DNA of 64,000 bases from a virus (IMGVR_UViG_3300003316_000301:32001-96000), one strand, 5' to 3'; shown: positions 12,575 to 24,576, numbered from the stretch's first letter. Numbers and translations are program-made. Notes: a model not told the origin generated them from the letters alone.

Positions 12575-13150
12575 TTACGTGAGCCTGTAGCGGCTCTCGG
12601 TCGGCCCCCGCTGGCCGCAGTAGTGGCCCGTCTTGGTGTAGTCCCGCTCGGGGGCGCTCACGGGCTCGAAGACGATCTGGGCGATCGGCATGTCCGGGTA
12701 GAGCACGATGCCCCACGGGGCGAGGTTGGCGATCTCCAGCGTGATCTGGCCCTCGAAGCCGGGGTCAATGAATCCGGCGGTGATGTGGACGGCCAGGCCC
12801 AGACGGCCGAGGGAGGACTTGCCCTCCACGCGGGCGGCCATGTGCGAGGACAGCTTCACGTACTCGTTCGTGCAGGCGAGCAGGAAGGTCGAGCCCTCCA
12901 TGCGCATCCCCCGCTCAGGGATCTGGCTCTGCTGGGTGTGCGTGTGCCAGGAGGGCACCATGCCGTAGTAGCCGGTGTCCTCCTCGGTCTTCATCCCGGG
13001 ATCGATGGTGTGAACGTCGTCCCGGGGGATGCGGATCTCTCCGGAGAGGGTGAGGTCGTAGGAGACCGGCTGGAGCCGGTCCTCGGCGAAGGGCTTGATC
13101 GAGAGGTAGTCCTCCTCGATCGCCTTGCGGATCTCGAAGTCAGCGAGCAC
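12575..13150 (-). CDS. dcd: dCTP deaminase
   Basis: LQPVSYDLTL, EGKSSLGRLGL, AGFIDPGFEGQITLE, IAQIVF, YCGQRGPT motifs. Confidence 0.95.
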   Translation of the reverse strand: MLADFEIRKAIEEDYLSIKPFAEDRLQPVSYDLTLSGEIRIPRDDVHTIDPGMKTEEDTGYYGMVPSWHTHTQQSQIPERGMRMEGSTFLLACTNEYVKLSSHMAARVEGKSSLGRLGLAVHITAGFIDPGFEGQITLEIANLAPWGIVLYPDMPIAQIVFEPVSAPERDYTKTGHYCGQRGPTESRYRLT

Positions 13151-13536: not shown

Positions 13537-13572
13537 TGGGATGACCTCCGGTGTACAGGGAAGGTCACTCTG

Positions 13573-13601
13573 ACGCTACGCACAGAATCCTTGGAGTGCA
13601 A
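13573..13601 (-). promoter_or_regulatory. Repeated promoter copy (TTGCAC-17-TAGCGT)
   Basis: Spacer contains the TCCAAGGATTC operator-like core. Confidence 0.6.
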
Positions 13602-13700
13602 GATCCTTGGAGAGGGTGGCATATGCACCGGGGGCACAGGGGGCGCACAGGAGTACGGTACTCGGTTGCTCCAGGGTTGGTTGGTAGTGCATGATGGGGA

Positions 13701-13780
13701 TCAAGCCGATGCGAACGGCGGGGGTTCCTTCAAATCTGGATTGAAAAAGACACCTCCACCATCGAGTTCTCGGCCCTTGA
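13701..13780 (+). ncRNA. Y-RNA-like unit 1 (short, no tRNA module)
   Basis: Ends pair (TCAAG/CTTGA, GCCGA/TCGGC); GATGCGAA...GGGTTCCTTC...AGTTCTCG signature shared with units 2-5; upstream of TROVE gene. Confidence 0.7.
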
Positions 13781-13797
13781 CAACTCCATATCGCGGA

Positions 13798-13966
13798 ATG
13801 TGCTGAGCCGAGGGCCAACGATGCGAATGCGCGGGTTCCTTCTTAATCCGTGTGTCAGTGGTTCGAGTCCATTCACCGGATCCTCTCGGTGTAGCTCAGT
13901 CGGATAGAGCAACGGCTTCGCGTCCCTGCGCTGATGAAGTTCTCGTTGGGCCTCGCCTCAGCACAT
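13798..13966 (+). ncRNA. YrlA-like Y RNA unit 2 with circularly permuted tRNA module
   Basis: Long terminal stem ATGTGCTGAG.../...CTCAGCACAT; T-arm GGTTCGAGTCC precedes a loop-closed acceptor stem and D-arm TAGCTCAGTCGGATAGAGC. Confidence 0.85.
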
Positions 13967-13972
13967 CCCGAA

Positions 13973-14147
13973 CTGTCGTAGTGGTGGAAGATGCTCGATG
14001 CGAATGGTCGGGCTCCTTCAATTTGTCTCGAAAACAAATCACCAGAGGTTCGAATCCTCATGTGTCCCCTCGGGGGCATAGCTCGAAGGTATCGGGCACG
14101 GTCTCCTGACCTACCCAGTCCACGAGCATCTCCCAGCGCTACGACAG
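13973..14147 (+). ncRNA. YrlA-like Y RNA unit 3 with permuted tRNA module
   Basis: Terminal stem CTGTCGTAG/CTACGACAG; GATGCGAA motif; T-arm GAGGTTCGAATCCTC, then closed acceptor and D-like arm. Confidence 0.8.
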
Positions 14148-14158
14148 CGCATACGCAT

Positions 14159-14231
14159 CCTCCCGATGCGAAGGCGCGGGTTCCTTCGTTCCATACCGAA
14201 AACACCTGCGCCACCACCAGTTCACGGGAGG
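14159..14231 (+). ncRNA. Y-RNA-like unit 4 (short, no tRNA module)
   Basis: CCTCCCG/CGGGAGG terminal stem; GATGCGAA-GGCGCGGGT-TCCTTC...ACCTGCGCC...AGTTCACG. Confidence 0.7.
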
Positions 14232-14241
14232 GTCTTGCTCC

Positions 14242-14388
14242 GTGGCTGATGCGAAGACAGGGATTACTTCAACCCGGGAGCCTGAAGTCGCTGGTTCAAA
14301 TCCAGCCCCCGTGACTCTTCGCGGGGTAGCTCAGTCCGGTAGAGCGCAGGCCTTTAGAAACGTCTCCGTCATCTCAGTTCTCAGCCGC
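14242..14388 (+). ncRNA. YrlA-like Y RNA unit 5 with permuted tRNA module
   Basis: GTGGCTGA/TCAGCCGC terminal stem; T-arm GCTGGTTCAAATCCAGC, closed acceptor, D-arm TAGCTCAGTCCGGTAGAGC. Confidence 0.85.
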
Positions 14389-14394
14389 ACCGCC

Positions 14395-14424
14395 AAGCCC
14401 CTCCTGCCCGCCAGAGAGGGGCTT
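14395..14424 (+). promoter_or_regulatory. Hairpin covering the RBS of the TROVE gene (attenuator/terminator-like)
   Basis: AAGCCCCTC...GAGGGGCTT inverted repeat ending 4 nt before ATG 14429. Confidence 0.45.
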
Positions 14425-14428
14425 TCGC

Positions 14429-16147
14429 ATGTCCAAGTTCCAGGGAAAGACGGCCGCCAAGCGGTCCGGACCGGTCAGCGTGCAGACCACGGTGGCCGAG
14501 ACCAAGACGTACGAGGGCGGCGCGGGATATACCCGTGACGTCCGCTCCGAGCTGTTCAACCTCGCCGTCGTGAACATGGTGGGCGAGTCCACCTTCTACG
14601 AGTCGGCCGAGGACCGGGACAACCGCTACGCGGACCTGATCCGCCAGGTCGCCGTCACCGAGCCCGCGTGGCTCTACCGTTTCCTCGGATGGCTGCGGAA
14701 CAAGGCGAACATGCGCTCCGCCGCGCTGGTGGGCGGTGCCGAGGCCCTCAAGGCCCGGCTGGAGGCCGGTCTCACCGACCCCTTCGAGGTCGAGCGCTCC
14801 TGGATCGGCGACACCATCCGTGTCGGCAACAAGGACTTCGTCCCGCAGGTCATGGCCCGTGCGGACGAACCGGGCGAGTTCGTCGCCTACTGGGCCTCGA
14901 AGTGGGGCAACGTCCGGGAGATCAAGCCGGGCCGCTACTCCGCGCCGGTGCTGCCGATGGCGGTCAAGCGCGGGCTCCAGCTCGCCCTCAACGACCTCTT
15001 CGACGAGTACGCCTACCAGAAGTACGGGCGCGTGGAGGAGGGCTACTCCCTGGCCGACGTGGTGGAGCTGGCGCACCCGGCACCCAAGGACGACAAGCAG
15101 GGTGCTCTGTACCGGCATGCCCTCAACGAGCGGCACAACCGCAAGGCCGAGATCCCCTCCGAGCTGGTCATGCTCCAGCGGCGCAAGGAGATCATGGCCA
15201 TCCCGGTCGGTGAGCGGCGTGCGTTCCTGGAGCTGCCCACCTCGTCCGAGAAGCTCAAGGCGGCCGGGATCACCTGGGAGCAGCTCTCGGGCTGGCTCCA
15301 GGGCCCGCTGGACGCGGCCTTCTGGGAGAAGCTGATCTTCAGCGGTGCCCTGGGCTACATGGCCATGCTCCGCAACCTGGCGAACTTCGAGAAGGCCGGG
15401 ATCTCCAAGACGGCCCGCAAGCGGGTCCAGGAGCGCCTGAGCGACCCGACGGAGGTCCTGCGGTCCCGGCAGATGCCCTACCGCTTCCTGAGCGCGTACA
15501 GGGCCGTACAGAGCGACTGGTGGGGTGAGTGCCTCTCGGACGCCCTGGACGCGTCCCTGAGCAACCTGCCGCACCTGCCGGGCACAACCCTGGTCCTCGC
15601 GGACACCTCCATGTCCATGCGCGCTCCCGTCAGCGAGAAGTCCAGGGTCCACTACGCGGACGTCGCGGCTCTGTTCGCGGTGGCCATGGCCAAGGCGGGC
15701 GACAGCTCGGCCCTGTACGGGTTCGCCGACAGAGTCTTCGAGCACAAGCTCCCCCAGGGCGGCTCGGTGCTGCGGGGGATCGAGTCGTTCGTCCAGCGCA
15801 TCGGTGAGGTGGGCGGAGGCACCGAGACGGTCAAGGCGCTGAAGCAGACCTGGAACAAGGAGTTCAGCCGGGTCATCATCGTCACGGACATGCAGGCCTT
15901 CGCCGACTACAACTGGGCCCGCAACCAGACCATCTGGTACGCGGACCGGAACGTTCCCCAGGACACCACGGCGGTCTCCACGGCCGTCCCGGAGGACGTG
16001 GTCATGTACGGCGTCGGGGGTACCGGGTACGCGACGACGGGCTTCGACCTGTCCAAGCCGAACCGGTACGAGATCTCCGGCTTCTCCGACCAGGTCTTCA
16101 CCATGATGAGCCTGCTGGAGCGCGGGAACGGCGACTGGCCGTTCTGA
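14429..16147 (+). CDS. rsr: Ro60-related TROVE domain RNA-binding protein with C-terminal vWA domain
   Basis: TYEGGAGY, ESTFYES, RADEPGE, ITWEQLS, LGYMAMLRNLANF, SRQMPYRFLSAY, vWA DTSMSM and IIVTDMQ. Confidence 0.93.
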   Translation: MSKFQGKTAAKRSGPVSVQTTVAETKTYEGGAGYTRDVRSELFNLAVVNMVGESTFYESAEDRDNRYADLIRQVAVTEPAWLYRFLGWLRNKANMRSAALVGGAEALKARLEAGLTDPFEVERSWIGDTIRVGNKDFVPQVMARADEPGEFVAYWASKWGNVREIKPGRYSAPVLPMAVKRGLQLALNDLFDEYAYQKYGRVEEGYSLADVVELAHPAPKDDKQGALYRHALNERHNRKAEIPSELVMLQRRKEIMAIPVGERRAFLELPTSSEKLKAAGITWEQLSGWLQGPLDAAFWEKLIFSGALGYMAMLRNLANFEKAGISKTARKRVQERLSDPTEVLRSRQMPYRFLSAYRAVQSDWWGECLSDALDASLSNLPHLPGTTLVLADTSMSMRAPVSEKSRVHYADVAALFAVAMAKAGDSSALYGFADRVFEHKLPQGGSVLRGIESFVQRIGEVGGGTETVKALKQTWNKEFSRVIIVTDMQAFADYNWARNQTIWYADRNVPQDTTAVSTAVPEDVVMYGVGGTGYATTGFDLSKPNRYEISGFSDQVFTMMSLLERGNGDWPF

Positions 16148-17287: not shown

Positions 17288-18096
17288 CCGAGGATCACGC
17301 CCTCGCGGGCCGTGTTCTTGCCCCAGGTGGCATTGCGGCCGACCGTGGCGTTCTGGCCGATCTCAGCGGCGTTACGGCCCTGCTGGGCCGTGTTCTGGGC
17401 TCTGGTGCCCACCAGGGCGTCGTACTGCTCGATGCCCCAGCAGATGGCGCACAGGGCCCACAGGAACCACCAGTCGTACCCCTTGGACTGCTCGAACCAC
17501 TCCCACCACTCCTCGAAGTCGAAGTCCGGCTTGTGCCGGTAGTCGAACTCCTTGGAGGGGTCGAAGTAGAACTTGAAGTCCTCCAGGCACTGGACCGCGC
17601 CCTTCTCGTCGCAGGGGTACCCGGACTCGAAGATCTCGTTCTTCAGCTCCTCCCAGAGGCGCTCCACGTGCTCCTCGGGGATGATCTCCTGCTCGATTGC
17701 GTGCTCCACCTGCTCGCGCACGGCCTTCTCGAACAGCTCCTCCTGGTAGTGGATGACGCACTCGCGGTTGGAGGTGAGCTTCTCCCGGCAGTACGAGACG
17801 TCCATGTACTTGCCGCGCCACTGGCGCCCCCGGAAGAGCTTGAGCTGGTCGTCCGTGTTCGCCGAGAAGGTGAAGGACTCGCCGTCGCCCCGGAAGAACA
17901 GATTGCCCGGCGTGGTGATGATGTCGAACCAGTAGCCGCCGGAGGACTTGCTGCGGAAGCGCAGGTGCCGGTAGAGCTGCGGGTTCTCCTCGTCCTGGGA
18001 GAGGTCCATCAGGACCTCGATCTCGTGCCCGGCGGTCTCCCGCAGGAAGCGCTCGCGCGTCTCGGCGAACGCCTCCCGGGCGTCGTGGATGCTCAC
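17284..18096 (-). CDS. Conserved phage hypothetical protein
   Basis: GTGA overlap with Thg1 gene stop; YRHLRF...YWFDIITTPGNLFFRGD motif. Confidence 0.7.
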   Translation of the reverse strand: MSIHDAREAFAETRERFLRETAGHEIEVLMDLSQDEENPQLYRHLRFRSKSSGGYWFDIITTPGNLFFRGDGESFTFSANTDDQLKLFRGRQWRGKYMDVSYCREKLTSNRECVIHYQEELFEKAVREQVEHAIEQEIIPEEHVERLWEELKNEIFESGYPCDEKGAVQCLEDFKFYFDPSKEFDYRHKPDFDFEEWWEWFEQSKGYDWWFLWALCAICWGIEQYDALVGTRAQNTAQQGRNAAEIGQNATVGRNATWGKNTAREGVILG

Positions 18097-19133
18097 GAGG
18101 TCGCATCTCCCCTCAGGTAGGCCTTGTGCGCCGCGACGACGCCCGTGATGTTGCCGTCGAGCAGCTCCAGCAGCGGGGTCCGGTCGTCCAGGAAGGGGTT
18201 CATGCCGATCATCCAGGCGCGGAACATGTGGTCCCCCATGGACTCCTGGATCTGCTTGGCCGTCCACAAGGCACCGGCGGGGTCGGTAGCCGTGTTCATG
18301 AGGGCGCTGCCCAGCACGTAGCCGAACATCTGGACCATGTCATCCGGCACGGCACCCGGTGAGGAGCCGGGGAAGAGGTTCGCCACGGCCGCGCTGTCGT
18401 ACAAGCCGAACTCCGGAGCCGCCTTGGCCCTCCACTCGGTCCGGACCTCGCGCGGAGGCCTGCCGTGCTTCTCCTGGTGCTCCTTGGGGACGTCCACGAA
18501 GTACAGCGCCTTGTGGATGAGCGCTCCCCGGCGGGCAGTGTCGGGATACTCCTTTTTAAAATTGATCCCCTTCTCCTGGAAGAGCTTCTCCTGGAGCTGG
18601 GCGGCGTCCAGTCCGTGCAGGGACTTGTGCGGGAAGTTGGCCTGAGCGGCCATGGAGACCGCGTTGCGGATCGCGTCCTCCTGGCGCCACCGGAAGTAAT
18701 TGATCACCTCGGTGCGGTCCGGGATCGTGTAGACCCGGCCGTCGAACTGGGCCGAGCGCTCAGGCCCGTGGAAGCCGGGGTGGTGCCGGTTGAAGGCCAT
18801 GGTGGCGATCGAGGCCGCCACCGAGGAGATCTTCTGGACCTGGCCGTCGAACCAGGGCTCGGTCTTGGGCTCCAGGTCGGTCAGCAGCACCGAGACCTCG
18901 TCGGACTGCTGGAAGGCGAACCGGGCGCCGGAGATCTGCATGCACAGCTCCTTGGCGACCTCCTGCATGGCGTCCATGACACCCGCGTCGAAGGGCTTCT
19001 CGGCGCCCCTCAGGTAAGTGTGGAAGGCCCTGCCGTCCACCCGGACGATCGTGTACGTACGGCGCGGCAGCGTGAGCCTGGTGACCAGCTCGTACGCCTT
19101 CATCCGGTCGCCGTACGGGTCTTTCCTGGGCAT
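18093..19133 (-). CDS. tRNA(His) guanylyltransferase Thg1-like protein with C-terminal MbcA/ParS-like extension
   Basis: RMKAYE, IVRVDGRAFHTY, QSDEVS, WFDGQVQKISS, FDGR, YFRWRQEDAIRNAVS motifs. Confidence 0.92.
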   Translation of the reverse strand: MPRKDPYGDRMKAYELVTRLTLPRRTYTIVRVDGRAFHTYLRGAEKPFDAGVMDAMQEVAKELCMQISGARFAFQQSDEVSVLLTDLEPKTEPWFDGQVQKISSVAASIATMAFNRHHPGFHGPERSAQFDGRVYTIPDRTEVINYFRWRQEDAIRNAVSMAAQANFPHKSLHGLDAAQLQEKLFQEKGINFKKEYPDTARRGALIHKALYFVDVPKEHQEKHGRPPREVRTEWRAKAAPEFGLYDSAAVANLFPGSSPGAVPDDMVQMFGYVLGSALMNTATDPAGALWTAKQIQESMGDHMFRAWMIGMNPFLDDRTPLLELLDGNITGVVAAHKAYLRGDATS

Positions 19134-19341: not shown

Positions 19342-20055
19342 TCATGGGCTTACTCGGCCGTTCTCACAGAACGCCCCGTAGGTGATGGGCATGTGCCGCG
19401 CCCACTCGATCTCCATCTTCTCGGCGATCATCTCGATCTCGCGCTGCGGGAAGGACGGGAACGTGGCCCCCTCGCTGATCGTCCGCAGGCCGAGGAAGTG
19501 CATGAGCGAGCGGGCGTTGCACGTGGCGTACATGTGCGAGAACAGGCCTACCGGCAGAACGGCACGGGCGATCTCCCGGGCCGTGCCGATGTCCAGCAGG
19601 CGCACGTATTTGCCGTAGGCGAACCGGTAGGCCTCGTCCATCTCCTTGACGACCTCAGCGTGCATCTCCAGCGACCCCGGCTTGAAGACGTAGTGGCCCG
19701 CCTTGCCCTCCTGGATCAGGTTGCGCTCGGAGCTGGGGACGTAGAACAGCGGCCCCAGCTCCATGTACCGGCCGCTGGCCTCGTTGTAGCTCCAGCCGAC
19801 CCTGTGGCGGTGGAACTCCCGGAAGGCGAAGATCGGCCCGCTGATGCGGAAGGTCATCGAGGTGTGCTCGAAGGGCGACCCGTGCCGGTTCTTCATCAGG
19901 TAGCGGATCAGGCCCTTCCGGCGGGCCTCGGGAACCTCGATCGCCGCCTGCTCGCCAAGGGTGGAGACCCTGGCCGCCCAGATCACGTCGTCGTCCGAGG
20001 CGCTGGACTTCACCAGCTCCACCCGCACGTCCTCGGCAAGAACGATCTCGCTCAT
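19342..20055 (-). CDS. thyX: Flavin-dependent thymidylate synthase
   Basis: AARVS, HGSPFEH, RHRVGWSYNEASGRY, AREIARAVLP, NARSLMHFLGLR. Confidence 0.95.
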   Translation of the reverse strand: MSEIVLAEDVRVELVKSSASDDDVIWAARVSTLGEQAAIEVPEARRKGLIRYLMKNRHGSPFEHTSMTFRISGPIFAFREFHRHRVGWSYNEASGRYMELGPLFYVPSSERNLIQEGKAGHYVFKPGSLEMHAEVVKEMDEAYRFAYGKYVRLLDIGTAREIARAVLPVGLFSHMYATCNARSLMHFLGLRTISEGATFPSFPQREIEMIAEKMEIEWARHMPITYGAFCENGRVSP

Positions 20056-21017
20056 GCGTCCTTCTTCCTGTCGTGCAGCGGGCACCCCTTGGTCTCCCAG
20101 CCGCTCACCATGTCCACCGTGTCACCCGGCCGGTCGAGGTACCGCGACTCGCCCTGATGCGTGAAGGGTCGGCACTTGCAGCCCGGCACGCCGAACTGGG
20201 GCTCGTTCTCCTGGCGCAGCTCGGCGAAGAGCTTCTCCCGGATCTCGGGCTTCAGCGGGGCGCACTTCGCCGCGATGGCGCTGTCGGCCAGACCAGCTTC
20301 CTCGCGGCGCTCCTTCAGCCACTCCCGGCGCCGGTCCTTGCGGAACGGGCCGCTCCCCCAGCACTCGCCGTGCGGGTCGTGGTCGCCGATACCTCCGCAG
20401 TGCCTCTCACGCGGGCCTCCGTGGCAGGCGCAGGTGCAGCCCTCCTCGGGCTGGCCGGGGCCGTCCTCGCAGTCCTCGTGCCGGGAGACGTAGCAGCGGT
20501 ACGAGGGCGCCGAACCGAACACGAAGAGCGTGTCCTCGTGGCTGAGATCCGGCTCCTCGTCGGGGAGCAGCGCGGGGTCCTCGGCCCAGGGCGCGTCGGC
20601 GTACTTCTCCATCACGCGCTCGCGGAAGGTCTTGCCGGACTCCCCCTCGCGCGGGCATCCGTTGCGGCTGTCCGGGCTCGGGCACGTACGCCCCTTGTAG
20701 ACGGAGTCCGTGCAGACGCACAGATGGCGCCCAGGGCCCCTCCGGGAGATGCGGTAACGCTTGTCCAGCTCCCGGACCACCGAGGACACCAGGGCGTCCC
20801 AGAAGGCCGCGAAGGGGCACGTGATGCCGTTGCCGCAGGTCTTGCAGCGGCCCTTGGCGTTCACCGGGTGACCGACATTGTCCGCCCACGAGCGGTAGTT
20901 GCCGGGGTAGTCGTCCGGCCATTCGCGGACGATCATCTCGTGCGCCTTGGGCAGCGAGTCGATGATGGCGCAGAGCCGGTCCGAGTCGGTGTTCAGCTCT
21001 GGTCGGGAAGATTCCAC
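20052..21017 (-). CDS. Hypothetical Cys/His-rich multidomain protein
   Basis: Several C/H clusters; start uncertain. Confidence 0.55.
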   Translation of the reverse strand: MESSRPELNTDSDRLCAIIDSLPKAHEMIVREWPDDYPGNYRSWADNVGHPVNAKGRCKTCGNGITCPFAAFWDALVSSVVRELDKRYRISRRGPGRHLCVCTDSVYKGRTCPSPDSRNGCPREGESGKTFRERVMEKYADAPWAEDPALLPDEEPDLSHEDTLFVFGSAPSYRCYVSRHEDCEDGPGQPEEGCTCACHGGPRERHCGGIGDHDPHGECWGSGPFRKDRRREWLKERREEAGLADSAIAAKCAPLKPEIREKLFAELRQENEPQFGVPGCKCRPFTHQGESRYLDRPGDTVDMVSGWETKGCPLHDRKKDA

Positions 21018-24495: not shown

Positions 24496-24502
24496 CTGGA
24501 AG

Positions 24503-24576
24503 TAGCGCGGACGGGAATTGAACCCGTGACCTCTGGATTATGAGCCCAGCGAGCTACCGAACTGCTCTACCGCGCG
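24503..24576 (-). tRNA. tRNA-fMet (CAT), initiator-type; CCA not encoded
   Basis: Full cloverleaf CGCGCGG-TA-GAGC-AGTTCGGTA-GCTC-G-CTGGG-CTCATAA-TCCAG-AGGTC-ACGGG-TTCAATT-CCCGT-CCGCGCT-A; C1:U72 mismatch. Confidence 0.93.

Follow-up and report, generated by a model that had tools for sequence, protein, structure and literature searches.

What the tRNA-like half of bacterial Y RNAs interacts with has been a question since 2014, and the published picture is that of a tRNA mimic without an anticodon loop. For YrlA, the absence of this loop was reported by Wang et al. (10.1101/312249) and holds for the Salmonella RNA that they solved. The drawing of Chen et al. 2014 includes, on the 5' side of the T arm, a stem-loop of lower conservation named "V", which was read as a variable arm (PMC4201824). 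The locus analyzed here, an array of Y RNA units beside a phage Ro60 gene, raises the question of whether such a hairpin is an anticodon arm and, if so, what reads it. The analyzed stretch of DNA (the window; IMGVR_UViG_3300003316_000301:32001-96000, 64,000 nt) comes from a complete IMG/VR virus record of 155,979 bp with ~67% G+C. The initial annotation of the window had proposed that each of the five units displays a different anticodon-loop-like hairpin and that the RNAs, as mimics that cannot be charged because of their closed acceptor, could titrate tRNA-cleaving or tRNA-modifying enzymes.

Y RNA array upstream of the phage Ro60 gene

The window carries a gene for a 572-aa Ro60 ortholog with TROVE and vWA domains (14429..16147, + strand; Pfam PF05731, 9.6e-19, and PF13519, 3.6e-07). 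Relatives of this protein were found in 77 phage records, and those from cultured Streptomyces, Gordonia and Arthrobacter phages carry the label "Ro-like RNA binding protein". Upstream of this gene and on the same strand, positions 13705-14386 hold what is, by its sequence motifs, an operon-like array of five predicted Ro60-partner Y RNAs of the YrlA/YrlB kind. All five units begin with CGAUGCGAA and are closed by a basal stem, the 3' strand of which comes after a conserved AGUUCNCG-like motif. Common to all units are the Ro-site motif UGCGAA(N)G at the 5' end, a stem that closes the unit and a linker of the form YUAY-UUC. The 5' motif, UGCGAA(N0-1)G in 5/5 units, contains the CGAA core and the trailing G of the consensus GNCGAAN0-1G of Chen et al. 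2014 but has U in place of the first G; in relatives, it reads GUGCG(A/C/U)N.

The array resembles YrlA (RF02553; PMC4201824; 10.1101/312249) in its position upstream of Ro60 on the same strand, in the CGAA 5' motif and the YUAY element, in the permuted T arm, closed acceptor stem and D arm, and in the presence of several Y RNAs per locus. It also lies within the distance used to define YrlA, namely less than ~4 kb from a Ro60 ortholog on the same strand. Unlike Rfam YrlA, for which the gathering score is 69 bits, the window units score 36-38 bits: no match to RF02553 was obtained at the gathering threshold, the best matches being local ones of 37.7 and 36.3 bits. ARAGORN with default settings called no tRNA within the array. 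The assignment of the region to the Y RNA arrays known beside bacterial and mycobacteriophage Ro60 genes (PMC4201824) therefore comes from the unit motifs together with the sub-threshold YrlA matches. The array itself is thus of an already known kind; what appears to be new is the anticodon loop, the variability of its triplet and the coupling between positions 36 and 37, of which no description for Y RNAs was found in the searchable literature.

A scan of the array for sigma-70 promoters and intrinsic terminators found none. Four sequence blocks upstream of unit 1 (window 13560-13700), ACGCUACGC, GGCAUAUGC, GGUUGCUCCA and UUGGUAGUGCAU, are common to the window and a 58%-identical relative (L002:2150-2290). 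Downstream of the array, a G+C-rich hairpin (14396..14423, + strand) ends 5 nt ahead of the Ro60 start codon and is kept in L002 (2952-2988); it may occlude the ribosome-binding site or form the end of the Y RNA transcript. The Y RNA/Ro60 block is a + strand island amid - strand genes, with genes for dCTP deaminase and ThyX thymidylate synthase on its flanks (window 12575-13150 and 19342-20085, both on the - strand). A gene of the Thg1-like tRNA-His guanylyltransferase family (18093-19133, - strand; Pfam PF04446, 1e-27; PHROG 4717), the product type of which acts in tRNA 5'-end repair, is located 2 kb from Ro60 in a phage genome with one ordinary tRNA only, the tRNA-Met(CAU) at window 24502-24576 (- strand), which is the sole canonical tRNA of the whole 156 kb. 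Neither a nuclease nor an RNA ligase was found in this phage neighborhood of Ro60, in which nucleotide-metabolism genes and the Thg1-like gene are present, and the genes flanking bacterial Ro60 loci include no nuclease, ligase or other telling partner.

Anticodon-arm mimics in units 1 and 3

Two of the hairpins described in the initial annotation were reproduced exactly by folding. The first belongs to unit 3 (13990..14130, + strand), in which a 6-bp stem at 14021..14039 (+ strand) presents the loop C32 U33 C34 G35 A36 A37 A38, similar to that of tRNA-Ser(CGA). On its 3' side, this hairpin is followed by 4-5 nt, a T arm (14044-14060), a closed acceptor-like stem (14061-14080) and a D arm (14081-14097), the Y stem being formed by 14006-14012/14105-14111; the order of the arms is permuted relative to the canonical tRNA cloverleaf. 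The Rfam tRNA model (RF00005) aligns the hairpin as an anticodon arm, together with the T arm, at 18.9 bits (E = 0.69), below the 29-bit threshold, and ARAGORN calls the unit tRNA-Ser(cga) in the relaxed run and in the re-permuted run alike. Unit 3 is a permuted tRNA mimic retaining a closed anticodon arm.

The second hairpin belongs to unit 1 (13705..13774, + strand), a short, YrlB-like RNA composed of a basal stem GCCGA/UCGGC, the UGCGAA motif (13710-13715), an upper stem (13717-13725/13752-13760) and UUCC (13725-13728). Here, a 5-bp stem at 13729..13745 (+ strand) presents the loop A32 U33 C34 U35 G36 G37 A38, which is Gln-CUG-like with G37. Neither a T arm nor a D or acceptor arm is present, and unit 1 can be described as a minimal Y RNA in which the Ro-binding stem bears nothing but an anticodon arm. 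Its ortholog in two relatives (L002 and L013) has the loop UUCUGGU and a compensatory A-U to G-C change in the stem. Real phage tRNA-Gln(CUG) loops, CUCUGGA and UUCUGGU, match the unit-1-type loops.

Units 1 and 4 resemble YrlB of Salmonella and M. smegmatis (PMC4201824) in a short Ro-site stem with one apical hairpin and, putatively, in processing from the same array. For M. smegmatis YrlB, a possible T arm was reported (PMC4201824), whereas window unit 1 has an anticodon arm instead. When all units were tested for a tRNA-type arm (5-bp stem, 7-nt loop, U33 and purine 37), units 1 and 3 passed and units 2, 4 and 5 failed. The family-wide statistics given below uphold the hairpins of units 1 and 3 as anticodon-arm mimics.

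Units without a canonical displayed loop

Units 2 (13813..13952, + strand) and 5 (14244..14386, + strand) are open modules of the classic YrlA type, which align to positions 23-85 of the YrlA model, i.e., to its T arm, closed acceptor stem and D arm. In unit 2, these elements occupy 13857-13873, 13874-13891 and 13894-13910 within the enclosing stem CCGU/ACGG (13848-13851/13912-13915), and the local Rfam match spans 13849-13914 (36.3 bits); no closed anticodon arm is present. In unit 5, they occupy 14290-14306, 14307-14326 (an acceptor stem of 7 bp) and 14329-14345 within the enclosing stem CCUG/CAGG, and the local match spans 14282-14349 (37.7 bits). Both units are classic permuted tRNA mimics, in which the anticodon stem opens toward the Ro-binding stem. 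The Lys-like CUU-AA proposed for unit 2 sits in a single-stranded internal loop (UCUUAA, 13841-13846), and the Pro-like CC-CGG-GA proposed for unit 5 (14273-14279), located 13 nt past UUAC, is in the right register but has C33 and one of five stem pairs.

Unit 4 (14159..14231, + strand; fold z = -3.3) is short and YrlB-like, without a T arm, D arm or acceptor-like stem. The hairpin claimed at 14185-14200 does exist; however, its 4-bp stem and 8-nt loop UUCCAUAC are non-canonical and allow no 5-bp/7-nt reading, and the CCA and CAU triplets pointed out in this loop are both missing from its counterpart in the closest relative, L002, the 8-nt loop AUUCAAAC. The proposal that each unit displays an anticodon-like loop thus held for two of the five window units (1 and 3) and failed for units 2, 4 and 5. 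These three units, with no hairpin or an 8-nt loop and with motifs that are not kept in relatives, are what chance resemblance of short loops would produce. For units 1 and 3, chance is excluded by the family-wide statistics, and as an account of the array it deserves hardly any credence.

Family-wide conservation of the anticodon arm

More than 1,000 Ro60 loci were reported by the scans. The loci analyzed here were drawn from cultured actinophages, from IMG/VR and from bacteria at one genome per species, all bacterial loci being from Actinomycetota. A motif-based finder, which demands the YUAC-UUC motif, collected 417 units: 73 phage loci contributed 230 distinct ones, and 76 bacterial loci contributed the other 187. 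RNAalifold applied to a MAFFT alignment of 79 units recovered the T arm alone, the alignment being out of register, and a covariance model and pair counts were used instead.

The arm begins at the conserved UUC, which corresponds to tRNA positions 27-29. In most of the units with a T arm, the T stem starts 21-22 nt past this UUC (the one after YUAC), a spacing equal to that between positions 27 and 49 of a tRNA, which places the hairpin at positions 27-43. An in-register 5-bp stem with 5/5 pairs and a 7-nt loop was found in 55/226 phage units, compared to 8.8 expected from other TTC sites and 6.6 from shuffles. U33 together with purine 37 was found in 82/119 cases versus 88/704 controls (Fisher, 1.6e-36, related sequences being treated as independent here and in all other family statistics). 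Four pair types occur at the two variable positions of the stem, which are paired in 96% versus 46% when permuted, as counted in the alignment to the covariance model, which had been seeded with arm-positive units. Among 62 units, the loop frame (C32.74, U33.90, R37.97, A38.97) is indistinguishable from that of real tRNAs of the same loci. In phage units, G37 is nearly confined to loops with G36 (20/22 versus 2/58, p = 1e-14); the same coupling is seen in bacterial units (p = 2e-5), and the corresponding counts for 197 real tRNAs are 28/41 and 8/156.

An arm with the kept loop frame and a changing triplet is present in about 130 related phage and bacterial loci; mimicry of the anticodon arm is thus a genuine property of the whole Y RNA family of actinophages and actinobacteria rather than a phage-specific one. 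Since it is equally common in bacterial chromosomes (57/76 actinobacterial loci) and in phages, the arm cannot be a phage invention, and its interpretation as a phage adaptation does not hold; the phage probably borrowed a host system. In 42/107 short phage units, window unit 1 among them, the arm is present without a tRNA core, as the sole element on the Ro-binding stem, which speaks against a role that is purely architectural within such a core. A third class of short Y RNAs, represented by 13 bacterial and 4 phage cases (for instance, L097:2112, L099:2268, L117:2186, L036:1874 and L073:1710), has a T-loop hairpin alone, with a UUCGAUU-type loop, right after UUC.

Anticodon arm or variable arm

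In class II tRNAs, the variable arm sits between the anticodon stem and the T stem and leaves 1-2 nt before the T stem. The hairpin was considered as such an arm, and this candidate was rejected, since a full variable loop of 4-5 nt, ending in a pyrimidine, comes after the hairpin. Long variable arms as a class II sign were sought across the units and found in one real case, L003:2652, which carries the arm and, apart from it, a long variable arm, along with a D loop resembling that of class II tRNAs; the coexistence of both arms in one unit means that the hairpin is not the variable arm. This unit (L003:2652-2810) resembles a permuted serine tRNA, with the loop CUUGACA, the long variable arm, a T arm and a closed acceptor stem; its ARAGORN call is tRNA-Ser(tga).

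When the units were re-permuted to tRNA order, ARAGORN called 100/109 of them tRNA and placed the hairpin triplet as the anticodon in 93/109. Since an arm-shuffled control scored 95/109, recognition as tRNA is no evidence in itself, and the placement of the anticodon alone is informative. The anticodon-arm reading is favored by the 17-nt size and the loop frame, the ordinary variable loop, the L003:2652 unit, and the tRNA finders taking the triplet as the anticodon. The hairpin corresponds to the element that Chen et al. 2014 named "V", which we re-read as an anticodon arm in the actinobacterial branch. Unlike published YrlA, these RNAs have a 17-nt arm at positions 27-43, a normal variable loop of 4-5 nt, a tRNA loop frame and a hypervariable triplet. 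A further difference from published YrlA concerns the Ro-binding stem, which in the modeled fold would exit between positions 26 and 27, via the YUAC linker, and not through the anticodon stem.

[quoted passage not shown] Such a cut in the acceptor loop, followed by CCA addition, could even turn closed-arm units into two-piece tRNAs that are charged and used. The 82-nt 5' half of the M. smegmatis RNA is long enough to contain the hairpin (PMC4201824), and both the ARAGORN placement of the anticodon and the single ordinary tRNA of the window phage would suit a working tRNA. We nevertheless regard this scenario as highly improbable: unit 3 has one linker base for U8-A9 and no serine-type long variable arm, unit 1 has no acceptor at all, the shuffled-arm control is called tRNA nearly as often as the units themselves, and triplets that differ between sister species would be intolerable for a working tRNA.

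Variability of the triplet at positions 34-36

In homologous arrays, U33 and purine 37, as well as C32 and A38, are kept while the triplet varies widely, as expected under the initial annotation. Distinct triplets number 28 in phage units and 29 in bacterial units, and stop-type (UCA) and A34 triplets are among them. In 615 pairs of related units from different loci, the mismatch frequencies are.62/.64/.38 at positions 34/35/36, versus.21/.08/.23/.01 at positions 32/33/37/38 and.05-.18 in the flanks. In one cluster, 54 units that have virtually the same stem sequence carry 21 triplets. In the three closest phages, unit 3 has the triplets CGA, GAA and GAU, and unit 2 is open or has GCU or CUU (it is closed in L013 and L057, whereas window units 2 and 5 are open); for unit 1, two of these phages retain CUG, and the stem shows a compensatory change. 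Triplets do not repeat within 8/8 arrays versus 7.6 expected by chance, a comparison that is uninformative on repeat avoidance. An enrichment of known VapC-target triplets in phage units (about 21% versus about 11% expected) was considered and rejected, as it is driven by related CUG units.

The clearest view of this turnover is offered by orthologous YrlA RNAs of eleven Lentzea species, which are 89% identical, with the first 33 columns and both arm strands invariant, and which have seven kinds of triplet (CCU, UUU, GCA, GUU, GUA, UGA and CGG). The CGG copy is the only one with G37, a coupled change within one genus on unchanged stems. Nucleotide diversity (pi) reaches 0.60 in the triplet, the most rapidly changing segment of the RNA, compared to 0.28 for the four-fold sites in the neighboring Ro60 gene and 0.09 in the remaining RNA. 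The triplet columns vary about as much as those of the apical acceptor loop, the most variable and presumably neutral ones; the triplet thus appears to change at least as fast as neutral sequence, and we make no claim of positive or diversifying selection.

A rate close to that of the acceptor-loop columns could also be expected from a structural relic, that is, a "V" hairpin left from an ancestral tRNA, which aids folding or nuclease resistance only and the triplet of which drifts unread. The existence of nonsense-type and A34 triplets, the switching between closed and open forms among close relatives, and the model of YrlA origin from dimeric tRNA transcripts (Wang et al., 10.1101/312249) would agree with such a history. 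However, a mere stabilizing hairpin needs no C32, U33, R37 and A38, which are kept as strongly as in tRNAs, and would not account for G37 tracking G36, including the coupled change in Lentzea, or for the persistence of the arm in short units, where there is no tRNA core that it could stabilize. We therefore consider a relic rather unlikely.

Possible function of the arm

The conserved frame and the 36-37 grammar imply a reader that treats the loop as that of a tRNA, and the free triplet implies that this reader either ignores positions 34-36 or has a specificity that keeps changing. Docking at the decoding site is one conceivable form of reading: at the matching codon, the arm would attach the Ro60-Y RNA particle to 30S subunits or stalled ribosomes and so deliver Ro60, together with the exonucleases that partner it, to particular messages or ribosomes. 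The G36-G37 and U36-A37 grammar is a decoding-fidelity feature of tRNAs, and the Y units keep it. Chen et al. allow for contacts with the ribosome or translation factors, and D. radiodurans Rsr sediments with ribosomal subunits (PMC4201824). This association is, however, independent of Y RNA (PMC4201824), a Ro-binding stem at the 26/27 junction with its 60-kDa ring may clash with the ribosome, and stop-type triplets exist; docking at the decoding site is, in our view, quite improbable.

The explanation that we favor, with moderate confidence, is that the array of Ro60-partner Y RNAs carries a family-wide anticodon-arm module serving as a surface or bait for anticodon-loop readers. The arm would present a surface recognized by anticodon-loop-reading proteins and would not itself decode, and its triplet would set which tRNA is imitated. 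Tethered to Ro60, it would most likely serve endonucleases of the anticodon loop, or the enzymes modifying positions 34/37 that prepare their targets, as a bait or competing substrate. A bait or competitor is favored because such nucleases are abundant in Actinomycetota, phage tRNAs are proposed to evade them (PMC10264068), the rsr-yrlBA-rtcBA operon of Salmonella is switched on by tRNAs cleaved in the anticodon loop (PMC7790460), and YrlA has already been put forward, as a speculation, as a competitive inhibitor of an anticodon nuclease (Hughes et al. 2020, PMC7790460). Anticodon nucleases of actinobacteria include enzymes that cut tRNAs Gln-CUG and Ser-CGA (PMC5175351), and the VapC targets cited in the initial annotation, Gln-CUG, Ser-CGA/UGA and Trp-CCA, are confirmed in print in the same source. 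From that annotation, arm mimicry in units 1 and 3 and the conserved frame with a variable triplet are retained, whereas display by each unit is abandoned and the inability to be charged is regarded as unsafe.

The favored explanation shares with the Salmonella proposal (PMC7790460) a tRNA-like domain of a Y RNA competing for an anticodon nuclease. Salmonella YrlA has no anticodon loop and is not cleaved (PMC7790460), whereas in window-type units the loop is present and variable. The units are also comparable to phage tRNAs that evade the cleavage of tRNAs or replace the cut ones (PMC10264068; PMC11555353), with which they have in common anticodon loops, a setting of tRNA-cleavage conflict and actinobacterial hosts rich in VapC-type nucleases. 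The phage tRNAs are, however, working tRNAs, whereas the window RNAs are mimics, presumably tethered to Ro60, of which two lack an acceptor end, and arrays of this design are found in chromosomes of Actinomycetota too. As a tentative and less likely extension, the triplet might be a hypervariable specificity cassette held under tRNA loop grammar; the RNAs would then be Ro60-tethered baits, competitive inhibitors or cleavage-triggered fuses for anticodon-loop nucleases, with arms-race turnover of the triplets in Actinomycetota as well as in their phages, and the phage array would be a counter-defense bank.

In the branch found in actinobacteria and actinophages, the anticodon arm is complete, the 36-37 grammar is of the tRNA type and the triplet differs between sister species, which directs the search for the partner of the tRNA-like half toward factors reading anticodon loops. 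Units 1 and 3 also provide defined RNAs with which the competitive-inhibitor idea can be tested directly on VapC11-type (Gln-CUG) and VapC28/30-type (Ser-CGA) enzymes.

Y RNA units annotated as tRNA genes

Across the surveyed loci, ARAGORN with default settings produced 54 "tRNA" calls on top of Y RNA units. In GenBank, tRNA-Ser(gct), tRNA-Arg(cct), tRNA-Pro(tgg) and tRNA-Arg(tct) genes are annotated directly upstream of Ro60 in the records of Streptomyces phages Alone3, GiJojo and Frankenweenie and Gordonia phage VanLee (L007:2274-2347, L006:2269-2343, L009:2180-2251 and L008:2245-2335), and each of them overlaps a Y RNA unit with YUAC-UUC, the anticodon arm, the T arm and the closed acceptor stem. 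As a consequence of these ARAGORN and GenBank calls, tRNA counts beside Ro60 genes are inflated. In four loci (L005, L006, L007 and L010), Ro60 and its Y RNAs are located amid large clusters of tRNA genes, and Arthrobacter phage Atuin has at least 17 tRNAs within 4 kb.
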